A DNA stretch of 64,000 nt from Candidatus Doudnabacteria bacterium. Lineage in GTDB: Bacteria > Patescibacteriota > Doudnabacteria > UBA920. Where the stretch lies: assembly GCA_016788665.1 (NCBI GenBank), contig JAEUSF010000004.1:29407-93406 (forward strand), in the 5' to 3' direction. Below, piece by piece: positions 7,089 to 57,665 of this stretch. The notes beneath the pieces are model-generated. The model was not told the DNA's origin. It was given only the letters and a program-made list of their open reading frames with translations, and ran no database searches. Numbering within the stretch: position 1 is the stretch's first letter; each line of letters starts with the position of its first letter. Position numbers and translations under genes: made by a program.

Positions 7089-7162
7089 TGGTCGGGCTGC
7101 TGGGAATCGAACCCAGACTACATCCACCCCATGGACGCGTACTACCACTATACTACAGCCCG
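7089..7162 (-). tRNA. tRNA-Pro (anticodon GGG)
   Basis: Hand-folded: acceptor CGGGCTG/CAGCCCG, T-arm CTGGG-TTCGATT-CCCAG, anticodon loop ATGGGGT, 3' CCA encoded. Confidence 0.8.
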
Positions 7163-7193: not shown

Positions 7194-7236
7194 AGAAGCC
7201 AAAAAAAAGAAGGCTCGAGAAATTTCGAGCCTTTTA
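7194..7236. terminator. Bidirectional rho-independent terminator (GGCTCGA-gaaatt-TCGAGCC flanked by A8 and T4)
   Basis: Perfect 7-bp stem with an A-run upstream and a T-run downstream; sits between tRNA-Pro and the ORF at 7254-7574. Confidence 0.5.
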
Positions 7237-7253
7237 GGCATTCAGAGGGTCAA

Positions 7254-7574
7254 TTAGACTCCCCAGCCGTATGTCGTCTCATAGTTGGTGAGTGGCCTTT
7301 GTAGAGGCATCTGTTCCAAACGATTGACCATCTTTGGCCCATCCAGCAAAGTATCTCCCGCCAAACCATGGGACCGGTCGTTTAGGAAAACACAGCACAG
7401 CATTCTTTCGCCGCTCACTACAACCAAAACGTGCACAGTTCGATCATGAAGCTTACGTGCTTCGTATGATTCGACAATAGCCATCGCTGGATTTTCCCCG
7501 AACGTCATACAAACTTCCTGCCCTTTGCTAAAGGGTCCAACGACTTCCCTGTGAACACGCAATATACGTTCCAT
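7254..7574 (-). CDS. Hypothetical protein (106 aa) in the GC-rich island
   Basis: GGAGGAG Shine-Dalgarno 6 nt upstream of the ATG and a terminator downstream. About 50% GC by eye, against the AT-rich flanks. Confidence 0.45.
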   Translation of the reverse strand: MERILRVHREVVGPFSKGQEVCMTFGENPAMAIVESYEARKLHDRTVHVLVVVSGERMLCCVFLNDRSHGLAGDTLLDGPKMVNRLEQMPLQRPLTNYETTYGWGV

Positions 7575-7650
7575 TATACTCCTCCAACCAAAGTTTTTAC
7601 TGCCAAAAAATAGGTTTCAAAAATTTAAAAACTATTTTTTTGCAACAAAA

Positions 7651-7676
7651 GAAAAACCCCCTTTGCAGGGGGTTTT
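7651..7676. terminator. Rho-independent terminator hairpin AAAACCCCC-tttgc-AGGGGGTTTT
   Basis: Perfect G/C stem flanked by A- and T-runs. Confidence 0.6.
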
Positions 7677-7848
7677 AAGCTTAAATACTTTAAAACGCCA
7701 CCTGCTTTAGGGGGTAATAATAATTATGCTGCTGTTCTGTACGCATTTCATATATGTATATATTATCAAAACAAACTTAGTTGTCAAATAAAAAAGCCGA
7801 TAAAAGTGGCTTTATGTGCAATTGCCTAAATGGCAAAATACAAAGCAC

Positions 7849-8235
7849 TTATTCGACTTGGGAGTTGTGAGAACTTGTCCCTAAAGATGGCCTAGGCGGC
7901 GGCGAATTATAGCGGGTGCCGGTAAAGGCATCCATTCCTTTGCGCTCACACAGAAGATTCAGCTCCTCGTCACTCAATTCTTCTACTACACGAATTTCCG
8001 GCTCCTGGCTAATCACGATTTTTCCCTCTTGTTTACTGGCGTTAAGGCACATTTTCATGCGCCCAAAGCATAGCCAACTTTTTAGATACGCTTTGGGAAT
8101 ATGAAATTTTTGGGAAGAGACAGCGCCGAATGTCTCTGTGTTATGTGGTTTGGAAAAGATTAGCACACGTGCTAGAATCTTTTTTTGTACACAAACAACA
8201 CTCGGCGCCGGCAAGGTTGGGGGCAGTCCGCCCAT
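7849..8235 (-). CDS. Questionable ORF (128 aa) in the GC-rich island
   Basis: No RBS and a low-complexity product; may be non-coding. Confidence 0.15.
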   Translation of the reverse strand: MGGLPPTLPAPSVVCVQKKILARVLIFSKPHNTETFGAVSSQKFHIPKAYLKSWLCFGRMKMCLNASKQEGKIVISQEPEIRVVEELSDEELNLLCERKGMDAFTGTRYNSPPPRPSLGTSSHNSQVE

Positions 8236-8940
8236 ACATTAGTTCTGAACAAAGCAAGCCTATGTTAGCTTTTAGCTGCCGATTACTTGGTCAACTCGTT
8301 TGTCAGTTGGAGATCAATAACAGCATCGCTGAAGCTCTTGCTGAGCTTCAAACTTAGCCCGACCTGGCTTGTTACCGGTTAACCGAAGAAGTGCCTCGGT
8401 CCAGTCTCGAACTGTGTCGCTTTTAGGTTCTTGATCCCTGTTTTTCGTCGGAATAAGGTCTGGTTCCTCATTCATCGGAAACATCCTCCGGTTTGATTGC
8501 CCGCCGACAGAGGCGGGCTTGGAGACTTACAAGGCAGTCAGCGTCGGTTAACGCTTTTTTAGTTGAACTCGTTTGTGACGAGCTCAATATAGACTGCCCA
8601 AATTGGCGGGACCTACGCGGCGGTGTTCGTTTCCGCTCGATCGACACAGAATTCCTGCAGGGCAGGCTCCGTGGAAGGTAAAAAGGATAATAAGTATCAA
8701 CCTCTCCTTCTCGGTCCCTAATTGTCGGGTGGATTTCGAATCCAGATAATTGTTCTCTTTCTCTCTCCGTGCGCTTACCCAAAAGAGAACAACCTATCTG
8801 GTTCTATTGGAAGCCACTTGCTTCACCTGGCTCCAGCCAGAGGCCGCTATTTAGCGGTCACAGCCACCCATAACTTTTGTAGACTTTGCGTCCACAGGCA
8901 TACAAACTTTTAAAAATTTATACGCCTGCAAACGCATTTT

Positions 8941-8966
8941 AAAACCCCGCTTCTTGCGGGGTTTAG
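8941..8966. terminator. Terminator-like hairpin AAAACCCCGC-ttcttgc-GGGGTTT, a near-copy of the 7651 hairpin
   Basis: Same AAAACCCC..GGGGTTT architecture as 7651-7676; followed by a second stem AAGGTGT..ACACCTT. Confidence 0.45.
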
Positions 8967-9184
8967 AAGGTGTGGTTTTTAATCCGTGTTTACACCTTAC
9001 CCCGCGCGCCAAAAAGTACGGCCTTCACAAAGACCGGGCGAATGGAAATAAGATTGTATATATTCTGTATCATCTTAAAAAGAATATTATACCCAATGTT
9101 TACTGTTGTCAAGCAAGTTATCAACAAGAGACAAAATGCAAAATTAAAAATTCAGAATGCAGAAATAAAAAGCCGTTAAAATTA

Positions 9185-12131: not shown

Positions 12132-13385
12132 TCAATTATTTATTCCCGGAACTGGAAATTTTAGAGCAAAAGTTTTTACCTTTTCCTTAATTTCAATAAG
12201 CTTATTATCATTGGCTCTGTTTACCAAAGCTTCGTCTATTAAATCTGCCACTGTCTGCATATCTGCCTCCTTACAACCTCTTGTTGTTAATGCAGGAGTA
12301 CCCAGCCTTATTCCAGAAGGATCTAGCGGTTTTCTCGGGTCAAAGGGAATCATGTTTTTATTTATACTGATACCCACCTTTTCCAAAGTTTTTTCAGCTT
12401 CCTTACCCGTGACTTGTTTGCTACCAAACAAGTCTATAAGCATAAGGTGGTTATCTGTCCCCCCAGAAACAATCCTATAACCTTTTACTTGCAGACATTC
12501 TGCGAGCTTTCTTGCGTTCTGTATAACTTGTTTTGAATACTCAACAAACTCCGGCTTTAAGGCTTCTTTGAAGGCAACAGCCTTGGCAGCGTTTATGTGG
12601 TCATGCGGTCCGCCCTGCACACCCGGAAAAACCGCTTTATCTACGGCACTGGCAAACTTTTCCTTACACATAATAATAGCGCCTCGAGGCCCGCGTAAAG
12701 TTTTGTGGGTAGTTGTAGAAACGACATCGCAATACGGAACCGGATTTTCTAACTGCTTACCCGCTATTAGCCCGGCTATATGAGCAATATCAGCGAATAG
12801 AAAAGCACCTACCTTATCTGCTATTTCCCTAAAGCGTTTCCAGTCTAAAGACCGCGAGTACGCGCTAAAACCTGCCAATATCATTTTTGGCTTTTCTCTT
12901 AAAGCAATTTCCTCAACTTCATCCATATCTATAACTTCCGTTTCTTTTTTTACAAAGTATGGAATTATTGAATATAACTTTCCGCTAAAATTTAAAGGAT
13001 GACCATGGGACAAATGCCCGCCCTGGTCTAACGAGAAACCCAGCACCTTGTCACCTGGGTTTAAAAGTGCCATATACACAGCCAAATTTGCAGGGCTGCC
13101 ACTTAAAGCCTGGACGTTAACATGTTCTGCGCCGAACAAATCTTTAACCCTTTGTATTGCTAAATTTTCCGCTTGGTCTATAACTTCATTACCCCCATAG
13201 TAACGCTTACCCGGATAACCTTCACTATACTTATTGGTTAATATACTACCCATAGCTTCAAGCACAGCCGGCGAAACATAATTTTCAGAAGCAATAAGTT
13301 CTATTTCTTCATTCTGCCTTTTTTCTTCTTTTTTTACTATTTCATATAAATCTGGATCTTGGGTTTGTAAATGTGGGTAATTCAT
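12132..13385 (-). CDS. glyA: Serine hydroxymethyltransferase
   Basis: SENYVSPAVLEAMGS..YSEGYPGKRYYGG; 417 aa. Confidence 0.95.
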   Translation of the reverse strand: MNYPHLQTQDPDLYEIVKKEEKRQNEEIELIASENYVSPAVLEAMGSILTNKYSEGYPGKRYYGGNEVIDQAENLAIQRVKDLFGAEHVNVQALSGSPANLAVYMALLNPGDKVLGFSLDQGGHLSHGHPLNFSGKLYSIIPYFVKKETEVIDMDEVEEIALREKPKMILAGFSAYSRSLDWKRFREIADKVGAFLFADIAHIAGLIAGKQLENPVPYCDVVSTTTHKTLRGPRGAIIMCKEKFASAVDKAVFPGVQGGPHDHINAAKAVAFKEALKPEFVEYSKQVIQNARKLAECLQVKGYRIVSGGTDNHLMLIDLFGSKQVTGKEAEKTLEKVGISINKNMIPFDPRKPLDPSGIRLGTPALTTRGCKEADMQTVADLIDEALVNRANDNKLIEIKEKVKTFALKFPVPGINN

Positions 13386-27066: not shown

Positions 27067-27210
27067 CACCTCCCATCGCGTATGCGACGGACTCCTCCTA
27101 AGTGGAGGGGAATCCCTATGCATCCAGTAACCTCGGCAGTACTCTCCTCCTTATAGGAGGAGAGTACTCTACGTAAGGAGAGGGAGGTGGTTCAAACTTA
27201 AACAATATAC
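27067..27210. repeat. Composite hairpin-array module, left copy (A cgcgtatgcgacg; B CCTCCtaagtGGAGG; C palindrome AGTACTCTCCTCC-ttatagg-AGGAGAGTACT; D GGGAGGTGGT..CAAACTTA)
   Basis: B-C-D recur in the same order at 27591-27706, and A recurs inverted at 27663-27685. Confidence 0.7.
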
Positions 27211-27551
27211 TTTTTAATCTCTTCCACGACTCCATTTAAATTATTTAAAACTTCCACATTCTGAAAACGAATAATTTTTATATTTTGATTAAAAATATAT
27301 TCAGTTCTTGTTTTGTCGTACTCCTGTGCTTTTGAGTTATTATGGGTTTCTCCATCTAATTCTATTCCCAAACTGTTACCGTGACAATAAAAATCAATAA
27401 TATAAGCCCCGACTCCATACTGCCTGCGAAATTTCACCCCCAACTTGCTATTCTTTAGCTGATTCCATAATAGTATTTCTGGCAAACCTAAATTATTCCG
27501 AAGTTCTTTCCTTCTTCGTTTATATTTCGGATTGTTGAAAATGTAATCCAT
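27198..27551 (-). CDS. DUF559 (Vsr/restriction-endonuclease-like fold) domain protein
   Basis: LLWNQLKN..LGVKFRRQY.VGAYIIDFYC....LGIELDGETH matches the DUF559 signature; 117 aa, flanked by repeat modules. Confidence 0.75.
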   Translation of the reverse strand: MDYIFNNPKYKRRRKELRNNLGLPEILLWNQLKNSKLGVKFRRQYGVGAYIIDFYCHGNSLGIELDGETHNNSKAQEYDKTRTEYIFNQNIKIIRFQNVEVLNNLNGVVEEIKKYIV

Positions 27552-27564
27552 AAATATATTATTA

Positions 27565-27706
27565 CCGCCCCACGATGCTGTTGCATCGCACCCCTCCTAA
27601 AAGGAGGGGAATACTACGGTCGTCCCACCAAAGGTGGGACTCTCCTCCTTATAGGAGGAGTACGTCGCATACGCGACGGGAGGTGGTATACAAACTTACA
27701 TCAACT
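27565..27706. repeat. Composite hairpin-array module, right copy (four tandem G/C hairpins: CGATGC-tgtt-GCATCG; CCCCTCC-taaaa-GGAGGGG; GTCCCACC-aaa-GGTGGGAC; CTCCTCC-ttatagg-AGGAGG; then CGTCGC-atac-GCGACG and GGGAGGTGGT..CAAACTTA)
   Basis: Direct repeat of the 27091-27210 module; it forms the 3' UTR of glyQS. Confidence 0.7.
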
Positions 27707-29283: not shown

Positions 29284-30114
29284 ATGAAACTCAGCGTGTT
29301 AGGGTGCGGAGCTCCGGTGTCTCACTTGCCAAACGTAAACACTCAAAGCCCCTCTGCCTATATTTTGGAATGGGGCCATGGCGGAAAACTTCTGCTTGAA
29401 TGTAGCACAGGCATTCAGGACAGGCTTAAAAAGAAAGGATTCGATATAGCAGAAATTCAGCACATATTCCTGTCGCATATTCATACAGACCACGTAGGAG
29501 GATTCCCAAGTTTATACCAAGACCTCTGGCTCAATACATTATGGGAGAAATCGGACGAAAGACGGCTAAAGGCATCATCCACCCGGACCATTTACTGTTC
29601 CAGGCAAACATCCACTAACCTGCTAAAAATTTTACGGCTGCTTATGCCGGAAAGCAAAGGCAGGCTCTACCCCTACCCCGAACTCAACTTTGTGGACATT
29701 CAAAACAAAGCCCGCTTGGAATTGAATGGGGCCAAACTTACAACAGTACCAACCTTCCATGGATCCGGCATGGTTAGAAGCTTGGCTATTCGGGTAGAAA
29801 ACTACGAGGGCGTATTTGTATACTCGGGCGACACCGGAATATGCCAGGGCATTGAAGACATCTGTCGGGGTGCCGACCTGTTTTTATGCGAAGCCTGCGC
29901 AATAACCGACGCAGAAATGCGTGCCCGCGGCCACCTCACACCAAAACAAGCCGGTCTCCTAGCAAAAAATGGCGGGGTCAAAAAACTTGTCCTCACCCAT
30001 CTAGCCGCCCCCCGCCTGCATGATTTGGAGCCTGTAATCCAAGAGGCTCTCAGCTCCGGATTTGCAGGTAAAATCCAAATTGCCCAAGACGGAGACGTTA
30101 TTAACCTGCCCTAA
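29284..30114 (+). CDS. MBL-fold metallo-hydrolase (RNase Z/ElaC-like short form)
   Basis: HIHTDHVGG HxHxDH motif, AAGGAGG Shine-Dalgarno, terminator downstream; noticeably GC-richer than neighbours. Confidence 0.65.
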   Translation: MKLSVLGCGAPVSHLPNVNTQSPSAYILEWGHGGKLLLECSTGIQDRLKKKGFDIAEIQHIFLSHIHTDHVGGFPSLYQDLWLNTLWEKSDERRLKASSTRTIYCSRQTSTNLLKILRLLMPESKGRLYPYPELNFVDIQNKARLELNGAKLTTVPTFHGSGMVRSLAIRVENYEGVFVYSGDTGICQGIEDICRGADLFLCEACAITDAEMRARGHLTPKQAGLLAKNGGVKKLVLTHLAAPRLHDLEPVIQEALSSGFAGKIQIAQDGDVINLP

Positions 30115-53392: not shown

Positions 53393-54190
53393 ATGCCAAA
53401 TTCATATCCCCCACCTGTTATAGCCTTAGGGCAACAACCAAACGGCTTTTTTCCAAAAAGATATTTAGTTTCCAAACTAGAAACTGCTCGAAATCTCCAA
53501 AAGGAAATTGGCGGAAAAATAATCTTTTTTTACCACGACTCAGACTCCGACTATAGGGAAACCATAACAGTATTAAAAGACAAAAATACACAAAGTGAAT
53601 TCCGTTTAAACTTCACGCAAGAAAATAAAATCCAAAAGAACTTTTCGCCCCTTTACTTAAAAAGAATCCCAGAAAATTGGAAAGCGGAAATTTTAAAACA
53701 ACTACCTCGCGCACTAGAAGAAAACCAAATTAAATTATTTTCTTCGATTGGAGCCAAAAATACAGCTGATTTTTGTTTAGAAATGTATAAAAAACTCGGG
53801 CTACTCGAAGGCGTAGAAATCATAAGGTCGAGCAATCAAGATTTTCGCCAAAAAGCTCCAAACCTAACAAACGATTACTACGCTGACGTAAAATACGAAA
53901 ACGAAATAGTTAGGGCAAAAGTATTAGCAAAAGACAATAAAAAATTTGGACTACTTCACCACGGAGGGGGTAAAAACACAGAATTTGAAATCTCAGAGGA
54001 GATACCCAAAAATCAAATTACTCCGGGGAGAGACGAAAGATTTGGTTGGATGAACTCTGTTATAAAAAGCACACACTACATTTGCGGAAATTCTGAATTT
54101 GAATATTTAAAAAAAGAAAAATTCCCAGAAGTTAAATTTCTAAAAAGAGATCAGGTAGAAGACGAAAGCCTTGCCTGGTTACCCTCTTAA
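53393..54190 (+). CDS. Hypothetical protein (265 aa), first gene of the bshB/bshA-like cluster
   Basis: No family placed with confidence; it occupies the slot where a third thiol-pathway enzyme would be expected. Confidence 0.45.
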   Translation: MPNSYPPPVIALGQQPNGFFPKRYLVSKLETARNLQKEIGGKIIFFYHDSDSDYRETITVLKDKNTQSEFRLNFTQENKIQKNFSPLYLKRIPENWKAEILKQLPRALEENQIKLFSSIGAKNTADFCLEMYKKLGLLEGVEIIRSSNQDFRQKAPNLTNDYYADVKYENEIVRAKVLAKDNKKFGLLHHGGGKNTEFEISEEIPKNQITPGRDERFGWMNSVIKSTHYICGNSEFEYLKKEKFPEVKFLKRDQVEDESLAWLPS

Positions 54191-54238
54191 ATCTTAAATC
54201 CCCGCTTACCCACAGGCGGGTATAATCTTAAGTAAACT

Positions 54239-54976
54239 ATGAATAAAATTATGTCCCGCGGAGCGGGATCCGGCTTCGCCGGAAAAATACTATGTGTTGG
54301 TGCACACCCCGATGACATTGAATTCGGTATTGGTGCCTTAATAATAAAAGAGACTTCACAAAACACCGATGTAAAATATATTATCGGTTCTTTAGGCGAA
54401 GCTGGTTCAAATGGCACCCCGGAAGAAAGAGAACAGGAAGCAATAGCAGCTGCTTCAATTTGCGGAGTAAATGACGTTGAATTTTTAAACTTGGGGGGCG
54501 ACTGCCATATTGAAGATTCTGCTATAAACGCAATTACCTTAGCTAAAAAAATTCGTGAATTTAAACCCGACATTGTTTTAGCTCCTGAAATGCACTTCAA
54601 CCAGCACCCCGACCATTACAATATTTCAAAACTCACTCATTCTGCTTGCAGACTAGCTCGTTATGGCGGTTTAAGTGAAATAAAAGAACTTCCTGTACAC
54701 AAAATTAATTCACTATTTTTTTACCCTTCTCGCGCTGAATGGGGCAATTCACCCGACGTGTTAATAGACGTTTCGGAGAACTTTGAAATCTGGATAAAGG
54801 CCATGGAAGCGCATACTTCCCAAATGAAAACACGAAACTATATAAATCTGGTATCGACAAAAGCTGCAGCATGGGGAGCTTCAATAGGAGTCAACTATGC
54901 TGTAGGGCTTTGGACAAACGACCCAATCCGCGTAAATACTATTTCAGACTTAAACCTGTCTTCACGAAAGTACTAA
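54239..54976 (+). CDS. PIG-L/LmbE-family N-acetylglucosaminyl deacetylase (BshB/MshB-like)
   Basis: VGAHPDDIEFG and HPDH motifs; 245 aa. Confidence 0.75.
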   Translation: MNKIMSRGAGSGFAGKILCVGAHPDDIEFGIGALIIKETSQNTDVKYIIGSLGEAGSNGTPEEREQEAIAAASICGVNDVEFLNLGGDCHIEDSAINAITLAKKIREFKPDIVLAPEMHFNQHPDHYNISKLTHSACRLARYGGLSEIKELPVHKINSLFFYPSRAEWGNSPDVLIDVSENFEIWIKAMEAHTSQMKTRNYINLVSTKAAAWGASIGVNYAVGLWTNDPIRVNTISDLNLSSRKY

Positions 54977-54977
54977 C

Positions 54978-56108
54978 ATGAATAAAAAGCTTAATATTGG
55001 AATTGTTTGCTATCCTAGCGTAGGCGGCAGCGGAATTGTCGCCACTAACTTAGGCAACTCTTTGGCCGAACTTGGGCACAGCGTACATTTTATTGCTTAC
55101 GAGAAGCCTTTTAGGCTAAACGAAAAACAAAAAAATGTACACTTTCATAAAGTTTATATAAACAAATACGAACTATTCAAATACCCCGATTACACCCTCC
55201 CCCTCTCAGTTGCAATTGGTTCCATACATAAAAAATATAAATTAGATATTTTACATGTCCATTATGCGGTGCCACACGCAACCGCAGCGCTGCTTGCTGA
55301 ACAAATGCTTACACACAGCGGGATAAAACCGCCCCATTTGGTCACCACCCTTCACGGCACAGATATTACTTTGCTTGCAAAAAATAAACATCTCTACGAA
55401 ATTATAAAATACTCTATAGAAAACTCTTGCTGCGTTACAGCAGTTTCGGACTATTTAGCACAGCAAACAAAAAAAATCCTGCAAACAACAAAGCCTATAA
55501 AAGTCATACACAACTTTTATAGCCCGAAGGAAGTTACCAAATCTAAAGAGAAAGTAAGAAAAAGCTTAAATCTCAAGCCGACCGACTTTGTTGCCTTACA
55601 CATGTCTAACCTGCGGGAAGTTAAACGCATACCAGACTTACTAAAAATAGTTTCAAATTTTAAAAGCCAAGAAAACTTTAAACTCCTTATACTTTCTGGC
55701 GGAAGCTTTCAGCAGTACAAGCCGCTTGTCAAAAAACTTGGCATAGAGGAAAAAGTTGTTTTAGTAGAAAATGCTCAAGACATAGAAAATTATATAAACG
55801 CAGCAGACTTTGGCCTTTATACTTCTGGCGAAGAAAGCTTTGGTCTTTCCATTTTAGAAACCATGAGCCTTGGAAAACCGGTTGTAGCCAGCCGTGCCGG
55901 CGGTGTACCGGAAGTCATAACCGACAAACAAAATGGGTTCCTGTGCAAAGTCGGTGACATAAAAAGCTTTGTCAGCAAAATAAAGCTGCTAGAAAAAGAC
56001 CAAGACCTGCTTACATCTTTGGGAGAAAACGCAAGACAAACTGCCGAACAAGAGTTTTCCTCCAAAAAAATTATAAATGAATACCTTAATTACTACAGGC
56101 ACATATAA
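54978..56108 (+). CDS. GT4 glycosyltransferase resembling BshA (N-acetyl-alpha-D-glucosaminyl L-malate synthase)
   Basis: N-terminus LNIGIVCYPSVGGSGIVATNLGNSLAELGH is typical of BshA-like GT4 enzymes; ...HGTDITLL... and the C-terminal E..G.PVVASRAGG donor-binding motifs are present; 376 aa. Confidence 0.75.
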   Translation: MNKKLNIGIVCYPSVGGSGIVATNLGNSLAELGHSVHFIAYEKPFRLNEKQKNVHFHKVYINKYELFKYPDYTLPLSVAIGSIHKKYKLDILHVHYAVPHATAALLAEQMLTHSGIKPPHLVTTLHGTDITLLAKNKHLYEIIKYSIENSCCVTAVSDYLAQQTKKILQTTKPIKVIHNFYSPKEVTKSKEKVRKSLNLKPTDFVALHMSNLREVKRIPDLLKIVSNFKSQENFKLLILSGGSFQQYKPLVKKLGIEEKVVLVENAQDIENYINAADFGLYTSGEESFGLSILETMSLGKPVVASRAGGVPEVITDKQNGFLCKVGDIKSFVSKIKLLEKDQDLLTSLGENARQTAEQEFSSKKIINEYLNYYRHI

Positions 56109-56247
56109 AACAAACAGCTCCCTAAAAACGGGAGTTGTTTTTAGTTTTAATGAACCCTTGTAAATTTCAAGCATTTGGTTTAATATAAACAAACCTTCAG
56201 TCTAGGCAACCCCTCGGCTGAATATCTCTTCTTAGTTTGGAGGAACA

Positions 56248-56991
56248 ATGACAAGAACGCTAACGGCGCTCTTTTTATTTGTATGTCTGGTCGCCCAGGC
56301 ATACGGAGTTACCATGACGGTATCGCCGGGCAACATGAACGGCTGGGCATTTATCACCGAAAGCGGGACACCTACAGGCACCCTAGTTAATGGACCCGGA
56401 TCCCCGCCTGCGGGTACCGGAAGTGCAGAATTCACCGTATTGACTTCCGGCGACCGCTTACTGCTTTCCACGCTCAACCACAACGGGCTCGGGCTGTCCG
56501 AAATTACTACCCTGTCTTATAGCACATACCGTCAAGCCGGCGGAAGCGCCCTTGCGGTATCCCTTCAGTTCGACATCGACACCGATTCGACGGATGCAAA
56601 CACCAGCTGGATGGGACGTCTCGTATACGAGGCATACTATACCCAGACTGTACTGGACAACACCTGGCAGACCTGGAACACGATGACCACCGGGGCCAAC
56701 TGGTGGTTCTCAGGCGCTCCTGGGAACGCAACTTGTTCTATCGGTTCACCCTGCACGTGGGCTCAAGTCCTCACCGCCTTTCCAAATGCCGCCATAAACG
56801 GCAATACGAACCTTAAGGGCGGAGGCGGGTGGAGTGGCTTCATTGGTAATGTGGATAATCTACGCCTCGCTACTCAGAGGTTTGATACAACCTACGACTT
56901 TGAAGCTCAAAATCAGGTACCCGAACCATCGACGCTTCTGCTTATGAGCATAGGGCTCGCAGGTCTCTGGGCAAAACGCAGGCGGTCATAA
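56248..56991 (+). CDS. Secreted PEP-CTERM sorting-signal protein, GC-rich
   Basis: Signal peptide MTRTLTALFLFVCLVAQAYG. C-terminal VPEPSTLLLMSIGLAGLWAKRRRS is PEP + hydrophobic helix + Arg cluster. Roughly 55% GC by eye. Confidence 0.6.
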   Translation: MTRTLTALFLFVCLVAQAYGVTMTVSPGNMNGWAFITESGTPTGTLVNGPGSPPAGTGSAEFTVLTSGDRLLLSTLNHNGLGLSEITTLSYSTYRQAGGSALAVSLQFDIDTDSTDANTSWMGRLVYEAYYTQTVLDNTWQTWNTMTTGANWWFSGAPGNATCSIGSPCTWAQVLTAFPNAAINGNTNLKGGGGWSGFIGNVDNLRLATQRFDTTYDFEAQNQVPEPSTLLLMSIGLAGLWAKRRRS

Positions 56992-57006: not shown

Positions 57007-57043
57007 ACAGTCGACACCTATTTGGTGAAGACTGTCTTTTTTT
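57007..57043 (+). terminator. Weak terminator-like hairpin plus T8 after the PEP-CTERM gene
   Basis: ACAGTC..GACTGT stem with a long loop, followed by CTTTTTTT. Confidence 0.3.
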
Positions 57044-57665
57044 ATTTATATTCAACAATTTTACCAGCCTGAATTTCCACCCTGTCAGCCAGCCTTAAAT
57101 TTTTTACCTGCTCTTTGCTCAATATTTTAAAATGTTTTATTTTGTCCAAAGCTTTAGGGACTGCAAATAAATTTTTTTCAGTCGTTCTCCAGTCAAGAAA
57201 GTTAAAAGTTCTTAAGTCGCATAAACTACTATACTCTCTTAAATTCTTTCTTCCCCGCTCGTCAAAATACTCATGAAAAAAAGAAAGTGCCAGCTCCCTT
57301 ATATTTTTATAAATAGGCTCGCGGTACCTTAAAACCGCGTGGTTGGTTTTACTTAACGCACCCAAGCTGCCATATTTTTCAAATACGCAAACCACATGGT
57401 CAAAATCATCCTTGTTAGCTCTTAAGTCCATAACCAAAGGCTTGTGGCCGCAAAATTCCAAAGCAGCCGCGGCAAACATAGCCCCTTCCATGCAATGGGC
57501 TTTTTTAGTTTGCATAACAAAACGCGGCGACATACAAGTTTCCCCGCCTTTTTCAAAGTTAAACTTTAAAGAATTCAAATAATCTTGAATTTTCTGGGGT
57601 GTACTTAAACGCTTAAATACCTCGAGCTCGCTTTTCGTGTATAAATTCTTAATTCCTAATTCCAT
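57042..57665 (-). CDS. Hypothetical protein with a transglutaminase-like Cys-His-Asp core (putative)
   Basis: AHCMEGAMFAAAALEFCGHKP resembles the G-C-x-x-F-A TGase-core pattern, with His/Asp downstream; 207 aa. Confidence 0.35.
   Translation of the reverse strand: MELGIKNLYTKSELEVFKRLSTPQKIQDYLNSLKFNFEKGGETCMSPRFVMQTKKAHCMEGAMFAAAALEFCGHKPLVMDLRANKDDFDHVVCVFEKYGSLGALSKTNHAVLRYREPIYKNIRELALSFFHEYFDERGRKNLREYSSLCDLRTFNFLDWRTTEKNLFAVPKALDKIKHFKILSKEQVKNLRLADRVEIQAGKIVEYK

Follow-up and report, generated by a model that had tools for sequence, protein, structure and literature searches.

Proteins sorted by the PEP-CTERM/exosortase (EpsH, Xrt) system are small proteins that carry a signal peptide and, at the C-terminus, a PEP motif followed by a hydrophobic helix and a basic cluster (PMC1569441). 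A gene coding for a protein of the same size and layout, with paralogues likewise clustered in related genomes, was analyzed here within a 64-kb stretch of DNA, which is referred to in its entirety as the window. The gene differs from known PEP-CTERM substrates in its host, which belongs to the Candidate Phyla Radiation (CPR), in the lack of an exosortase or EPS locus in the window, and in its N-terminal domain, which scored below the cut-offs of the named subfamilies. Hosts of PEP-CTERM proteins are described as diderm exopolysaccharide producers, and the CPR host does not correspond to this description.

The genome was marked as CPR by the gene adjoining the target, a member of the CPR-C4 family, for which strong conservation among CPR bacteria has been described (PMC9108980). 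The window also carries the cyoABCDE operon, matching a report on soil Doudnabacteria, in which the cyo operon was described as laterally acquired (PMC8407418). It is quite probable that the target is a real gene, passed on by vertical descent in a CPR/Patescibacteria bacterium from soil (Doudnabacteria), that it codes for a secreted, CBM-like PEP-CTERM surface protein, and that its high GC content is old and common to its class.

Structure of the Gene and Its Product

The features of the target gene and its immediate surroundings are listed in Table 1.

Table 1. Features of the PEP-CTERM gene and its surroundings (positions in the window).
Feature	Position	Strand	Remarks
Complete ORF, PEP-CTERM surface protein and GC-rich island	56248..56991	+	247 aa and stop codon
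Shine-Dalgarno sequence GGAGG	56239..56243	+	4 nt 5' of ATG at 56248; from reading the sequence
Sec-type signal peptide, residues 1-20, MTRTLTALFLFVCLVAQAYG	56248..56307	+	sequence features and alignment of homologue N-termini
Mature domain, residues 21-222, beta-sandwich, CBM-like	56308..56913	+	conserved Cys163/Cys169, many conserved Trp/Tyr
PEP-CTERM sorting signal, residues 224-247	56917..56988	+	VPEP motif, hydrophobic helix, KRRRS; above curated cut-offs
Terminator-like hairpin ending upstream bshA	56112..56140	+	11-bp stem, then T-rich tail
Probable terminator hairpin, joint with convergent CPR-C4 gene	57007..57043	+	ACAGTC...GACTGT, inner CACC/GGTG stem, then T run
CPR-C4 family cysteine protease, convergent neighbour	57042..57665	-	PDB 7OB6, E 3.6e-56; anchors conserved synteny

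An identical protein is recorded at NCBI (P0001) with a length of 225 aa, starting at Met23 (56314) and lacking the signal peptide. The 247-aa start was favoured over it because of the position of the Shine-Dalgarno sequence and the alignment with homologues. The N-terminus displays a basic residue, a hydrophobic core and A-x-G, with a putative cleavage point between MTRTLTALFLFVCLVAQAYG and V, and pLDDT was low over this region, as expected for a signal peptide. The call was based on visual inspection and on how the N-terminus aligned with those of homologues, and the Sec signal peptide proposed earlier was borne out by both.

Comparison with the orthologue in locus L005 yielded a dN of 0.107 against saturated dS, which indicated purifying selection on the frame. 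ORFs on the opposite strand, previously described as long, were present but short, measuring 83 and 74 aa. The upstream hairpin sets the target apart from the preceding genes. The downstream hairpin was spotted by eye; a consensus terminator scan missed it, as its loop exceeded the scan rule.

Residues 21-222 had no match in Pfam or NCBIfam. The AlphaFold2 model, based on 113 sequences, reached a pLDDT of 92.3 and consisted of a beta-sandwich over residues 20-218 and a C-terminal helix over residues 228-246, and the best Foldseek matches were CBM11 (E 4e-5). Residues W33, W140, R124, D203, C169 and three others were invariant in the 113 sequences, and C163 together with several further Trp/Tyr residues was nearly so.

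The domain family comprised 3177 cluster representatives at E ≤ 1e-3, many of them inside giant surface proteins of 1000-4700 aa, and is not covered by a Pfam model. Its C-termini proved interchangeable, with PEP-CTERM signals, the Cys-rich 'CKNGGW...FKNQGxCVS' ending, dockerin, TSP3 and membrane anchors all represented. Many members (P0009, P0011, P0015 and others) end in a two-Cys motif of about 35 residues, 'PxSKDxCKNGGWxxFxNPxFKNQGxCVS', instead of PEP-CTERM. This motif occupies columns 432-490 of alignment A1, has no Pfam annotation, and may represent an undescribed C-terminal module.

Conserved Gene Order and Divergence

The order tRNA-His-msrB ... target-CPR-C4-gnd was common to the window and loci L001 and L165, and the genes of L005 corresponded one by one to those of the window over the stretch that begins with the target and extends to zwf. 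The nearest homologues of the target were located on contigs of low GC that come from other samples. These three loci originate from independent assemblies, namely Logan SRR27197497 (L001), a SPIRE MAG (L005), and Logan SRR30710957 (L165). The tRNA-His gene, located 3.4 kb upstream of the target, is part of the conserved synteny. The only variable part was the stretch from msrB to the target, with three genes in the window, none in L001, and three others in L165.

Protein identities to the window copy decreased in the same order of loci for the target and its neighbours. For the target, values of 0.83, 0.65, 0.57, and 0.46 were obtained in L005, L001, L165, and L019, respectively, compared to 0.84, 0.75, 0.63, and 0.50 for CPR-C4. 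Gnd yielded 0.88, 0.79, and 0.69 in L005, L001, and L165, respectively, the L019 locus being without Gnd. Relative to L005, pS was 0.73-0.74 for the target (saturated) and 0.60-0.83 for the flanking genes. Dating was blocked by the saturation of synonymous sites.

Several further observations were made in this neighbourhood. The three genes between msrB and the target, missing from this position in L001, are bshA, a BshB1-like deacetylase gene (below cut-off) and an unassigned 265-aa ORF (53393-56108, plus strand), and bshA passed the equivalog cut-off of TIGR03999 with 422 bits vs 274. When msrA, msrB, zwf, gnd and the cyo operon are added to the bshA group, this part of the CPR genome presents itself as a neighbourhood of thiol/redox defence. 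L005 is titled 'Candidatus Saccharibacteria' and the window protein 'Candidatus Doudnabacteria', despite protein identities of about 60-88% and full synteny; at least one of the two labels is too coarse or wrong.

The CPR-C4 gene adjoined PEP-CTERM genes in three arrangements, represented by the window (57042-57665, minus strand), L019 (12708-13340), and L166 (8616-9263). It was convergent with the PEP-CTERM gene in the window, L005, L001, and L165. In L019 and L166, it was located on the same strand just upstream of the PEP-CTERM cluster, with a conserved membrane-anchored ORF of 172 aa in between. The adjacency could be inherited synteny or could reflect a functional link; in a published study, the gene neighbourhood of CPR-C4 was judged uninformative (PMC9108980).

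An inverted repeat of 50 nt (86% complementary; 27067-27116 and 27636-27685) was also observed in the window. It brackets a very AT-rich ORF of 117 aa (27198-27551), of which L019 contains a 46%-identical homologue (12280-12639). This arrangement resembles a mobile element of small size or one flanked by hairpins.

Base Composition of the Gene

The GC content of the target was 0.547, with 0.51, 0.54, and 0.59 at codon positions 1, 2, and 3, respectively (GC3 0.589), compared to 0.395 for the window. Among 744-nt windows (mean 0.395, sd 0.031), the maximum of the whole stretch fell on the target, about 4.9 sd above the mean. From the amino acids of the target and the codon usage of the window, a GC of 0.470 and a GC3 of 0.408 were expected; observed-minus-expected GC3 was thus +0.18, corresponding to z = 4.8 against the 46 other genes in the window. 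About half of the GC excess came from amino-acid composition (rich in Gly, Ala, Thr, Pro, and Trp) and about half from synonymous choice. The excess in GC3 extended over the whole ORF, from signal peptide through domain to tail, and disappeared no more than 120 nt from either end. The GC deviation claimed in the earlier note was therefore confirmed by direct calculation of GC and codon usage.

Third positions showed a strand asymmetry throughout the window, with C3 of about 0.25 and G3 of about 0.12 in plus-strand genes vs about 0.13 and 0.23 in minus-strand genes, and cumulative GC skew dropped steadily along the window. Because of this strong asymmetry, comparisons of codon usage in this genome must stay within one strand.

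Two other places in the window were also compositionally distinct. A gene of the metallo-beta-lactamase fold (29284-30114, plus strand; GC 0.493, observed-minus-expected GC3 +0.14) was the second outlier and is a lone plus-strand gene amid minus-strand genes. A GC-rich stretch (0.47-0.51) at 7200-9100 adjoins tRNA-Pro (7089-7162) and contained only short ORFs without Pfam match; a comparison with Rfam was likewise negative at a threshold as permissive as E ≤ 1.

Composition Across Orthologues and Relatives

Copies of the CPR PEP-CTERM clade (window, L001-L005, L019, L164, and L165) had GC values of 0.55-0.60 and GC3 values of 0.59-0.75. The GC of their flanks was 0.35-0.42, except for the short contig L003 with 0.51, and flank GC3 was about 0.2-0.45 vs about 0.6-0.7 in the target copies. 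Elsewhere in the wider domain family, for which 160 loci were compared, the GC of the gene tracked that of its flanks.

The difference between gene and flank GC was also evaluated according to the C-terminus, with only contigs below 45% GC compared. The mean gene-minus-flank GC was +0.184 for the PEP-CTERM ending (n=5; GC3 0.61-0.68), +0.062 for the Cys-motif ending (n=5; GC3 0.19-0.40), and +0.036 for other endings (n=13; GC3 0.15-0.50). In low-GC contigs, family members without the PEP tail were AT-rich, with GC3 of 0.15-0.50 and mostly 0.15-0.40, which indicates that the domain itself can be encoded by AT-rich sequence.

Comparable values were obtained for further PEP-CTERM genes. L019 contains four PEP-CTERM genes within 7 kb, with GC of 0.54-0.585. 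An unrelated gene coding for DUF4114 and a PEP-CTERM tail, present in L019 and as a syntenic orthologue in L166, had GC3 of 0.66-0.69; in L166, a contig with 35% GC, its GC3 was 0.66 vs 0.2-0.3 in the neighbours.

The cyoABCDE operon in the window displayed native composition (GC 0.35-0.41). Since this operon is reportedly derived from transfer and is compositionally native here, the genome evidently ameliorates foreign genes. The high GC is a stable trait of PEP-CTERM genes in this CPR clade and not a scar of transfer; it was kept through saturating synonymous divergence while the target co-diverged with its neighbours.

Another GC-rich ORF (0.565) was observed in L165 (17-793, plus strand), in a CPR contig with 43% GC. 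The encoded protein carries a signal peptide, lacks a PEP-CTERM tail and is without a match in Pfam. In this clade, islands of high GC may be a more general mark of secreted proteins.

Several mechanisms were considered for the high GC of the target, and none of tRNA-type codon bias, conserved RNA structure, and repeats or cassettes accounted for it. Conserved RNA structure evaluated by RNAalifold was weak (-25.5 kcal/mol over 801 columns, with a covariation term of -0.4). In codon-shuffle tests of mRNA folding, z ranged from -0.6 to -3.6 for targets and from -0.3 to -2.1 for controls, a marginal excess. No repeats, silent cassettes, or DGR template were found in the window. The candidate forces that remain are recombination-linked GC-biased conversion, selection for GC-rich mRNA, and repeated replacement from GC-rich hosts, the last of which is disfavoured because the target co-diverges with its neighbours.

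Origin of the Gene and Alternative Explanations

Neighbour-joining analysis of the domain grouped the CPR PEP-CTERM copies in a clade with 77% bootstrap, which joined a Solibacteraceae PEP-CTERM protein with 92%; the domain trees were distance-based. The Solibacteraceae gene has a GC of 0.57 vs 0.58 for its own genome and a GC3 of 0.59. The positional orthologue in L165 fell outside the group of the CPR clade and Solibacteraceae, which implies at least one inter-phylum transfer, in either direction, or strongly uneven branch rates. The simplest origin is an ancient entry of the clade into CPR, the probable source being a GC-rich bacterium bearing PEP-CTERM proteins.

The earlier note had attributed the deviating composition to recent horizontal acquisition or to a contig chimera, and neither withstood comparison with other assemblies. 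An assembly or binning chimera, in which the CPR contig would have received a piece of DNA from a GC-rich organism, has the abrupt change in composition as its sole supporting point. It was ruled out because both junctions recur in L001, L005, and L165, three independent assemblies from other samples; moreover, the target has its own Shine-Dalgarno sequence and the terminators fit the flanks, which leaves this explanation a practically negligible probability. Recent acquisition from a GC-rich donor, with the composition not yet ameliorated, agrees with the real deviation in GC and GC3, with its sharp edges at the gene boundaries, with the nearest non-CPR relative being the Solibacteraceae gene, whose GC matches its own genome, and with the tRNA genes close by in two contexts (tRNA-His in the window and tRNA-Ile/Ala in L004). 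Nevertheless, the three other assemblies contain positional orthologues at 83%, 65%, and 57% identity between the same neighbours; they are equally GC-rich, and their synonymous sites are saturated with GC3 unchanged. Recent transfer was ruled out on the basis of this saturation and of the co-divergence with the neighbours, and we regard it as very improbable. No repeat touched the gene and no mobility genes flanked it, the nearest integrase-like ORF being 18 kb off; no plasmid or viral relatives of the target were found, and a metagenome scan yielded only relatives at ≤54% identity. Among the properties by which genomic islands are recognized, atypical composition was present, and absence or different placement in relatives and low synonymous divergence were not.

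The grouping of the Solibacteraceae homologue with the CPR clade (92%), with the positional orthologue L165 outside, and the resemblance of GC3 in the CPR copies (0.59-0.75) to that of the Solibacteraceae gene would also be expected if the locus were old and its copies young, i.e., if alleles were repeatedly replaced in place by DNA from GC-rich hosts such as Acidobacteria. Against this, when the five genomes are ordered by identity of the target, the order is exactly that given by CPR-C4 and Gnd; replacement would need flanking homology, which the genome of a GC-rich host lacks, and unrelated PEP-CTERM genes share the composition; such replacement therefore appears distinctly unlikely. Translational selection on the codons of a surface protein expressed at very high levels is rated slightly higher, as unlikely. 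An abundant surface protein is plausible, and when compared to all window genes, the target was strongly enriched in codons with a final C for Phe, Ile, Tyr, Asn, Thr, and Leu. However, this preference was rejected as a sign of translational selection, since it mostly reflected strand asymmetry: relative to co-oriented genes, the target had both C3 (0.35 vs about 0.25) and G3 (0.23 vs about 0.12) raised and A3 reduced, whereas EF-G and S12 had more C3 with G3 lower or unchanged. Old acquisition followed by vertical inheritance, with the GC content retained, is accordingly the reading preferred here.

PEP-CTERM Signal and the Question of Sorting

The C-terminus of the target, VPEPSTLLLMSIGLAGLWAKRRRS, scored 34.3 bits against PF07589 (cut-off 20.7, E 2.2e-8) and 29.8 bits against TIGR02595 (cut-off 16, E 6.1e-7). 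The PEP-CTERM signal recognized earlier from the sequence was thus upheld by both curated models. In a six-frame translation of the window, it was the sole PEP-CTERM tail, with E 2.8e-13 and the next best at 0.17. The gene, called a lone copy in the earlier note, is therefore alone inside the window, but related genomes contain clusters of up to four PEP-CTERM genes, adjacent copies numbering 2-4 per locus in the related CPR loci L002, L003, L019, and L166.

The P-E-P-x-T core was invariant in all 15 complete CPR tails, with V, or in two cases I, as the first residue. The hydrophobic segment was freely variable among the same tails, overall identity being 45-83%. An invariant core combined with a variable hydrophobic segment suggests recognition by an enzyme rather than a mere anchor.

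An exosortase was found neither in the window nor in any fetched locus. Pfam searches of membrane ORFs of the window and of the L019 and L005 neighbours did not detect it, nor did a guessed Cys/Arg motif applied to 43 polytopic ORFs. In a Pfam search of 34 polytopic ORFs from all loci, none was present among the matches listed (25 of 30 families). It was likewise not found among small ORFs adjoining the PEP-CTERM clusters or in the gene contexts of P0118, P0262, and P0263. There was no EPS locus in the window, the adjacent GT4 gene being bshA.

CPR bacteria are not known to have an outer membrane, and the canonical destination of PEP-CTERM proteins would for this reason be missing in the host. 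Export of the product would proceed through Sec, as suggested by the features of the signal peptide, and the exported protein would fold into a CBM-type beta-sandwich of about 200 residues, possibly binding glycans. The PEP-CTERM signal would then hold it at the cell surface. It seems somewhat favoured that the invariant P-E-P-x-T core is recognized by an enzyme of the exosortase family, the gene for which would lie in another part of the genome; otherwise, the tail would act as a plain membrane anchor. The latter possibility, namely that these CPR genomes have no exosortase and that the tail came from the donor and simply anchors the C-terminus in the membrane, is the less likely one, although it carries appreciable weight. 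It is consistent with the lack of an exosortase in the window and around the PEP-CTERM clusters of L019 and L166, and with the literature searched, which contained no link of exosortase or PEP-CTERM to CPR; on the other hand, a plain anchor does not need the core that is invariant in the 15 tails.

Discussion

The best-supported reading is that the target may be a surface-anchored lectin or adhesin. Its likely role would be to attach the cell to a polysaccharide, either of a host cell or of a matrix, in keeping with the life of an episymbiont. A broader proposal is put forward tentatively, as one that may well prove wrong: this CPR clade would run working sorting of the PEP-CTERM/exosortase type, and lectin-like cargo genes of several unrelated families would be kept by a force specific for the gene class, e.g., recombination-linked GC-biased conversion or selection on mRNA, at an equilibrium of base composition of their own (GC3 0.6-0.75, as opposed to 0.2-0.4 for the genomes). 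If this is true, GC islands would mark the host-contact proteins of episymbionts.

Islands with sharp compositional edges are commonly attributed to recent transfer. In the present case, this reading is wrong, as the orthologues are saturated and yet compositionally foreign, and the locus provides a clean test case of what, besides mutation bias, sets local GC. Surface sorting of the PEP-CTERM type is indicated in CPR bacteria, a link that was not found in the literature searched. The combination of high GC, a signal peptide, a PEP tail and a lectin-like fold makes candidate host-attachment factors of uncultured episymbionts recognizable.

Comparison with Known Systems

The beta-sandwich (jelly-roll) fold is common to the target domain and to CBM4, CBM11, CBM16, CBM22, and CBM30. 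The target differs from these modules in that identity is only 10-15%, it belongs to no named CBM family, and it has no attached enzyme. Glycan binding by the domain is suggested from similarity of the modelled fold at this level of identity. The flocculation-associated PEP-CTERM protein PepA (NF033554) corresponds to the target in length and layout, with residues 5-247 matching positions 7-260 of 261 in the profile; at 25.8 bits vs a cut-off of 80, the target is not a PepA member.

In archaea, the PGF-CTERM/archaeosortase A system employs an enzyme of the exosortase family, which processes the tripartite C-terminal signal of S-layer glycoproteins in a cell without an outer membrane. By analogy, anchoring by archaeosortase A is a plausible model for sorting in CPR. 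The two differ in motif, PGF in the archaeal system and PEP in the target, and no archaeosortase homologue was identified here.

Surface-protein genes with GC well above that of the genome are represented by Borrelia vls and the MgPa repeats of Mycoplasma genitalium, both of which rely on silent cassettes and gene conversion. The target shares with them the position of a GC-rich surface gene in an AT-rich genome; unlike them, it lies in a window without repeats or cassettes. The cyoABCDE operon of soil CPR (PMC8407418), a trait of foreign origin located in the same window, has native GC, unlike the PEP-CTERM gene. Within the PEP-CTERM class, the target is an unremarkable representative, what is unusual being its host, and its compositional stasis is real.
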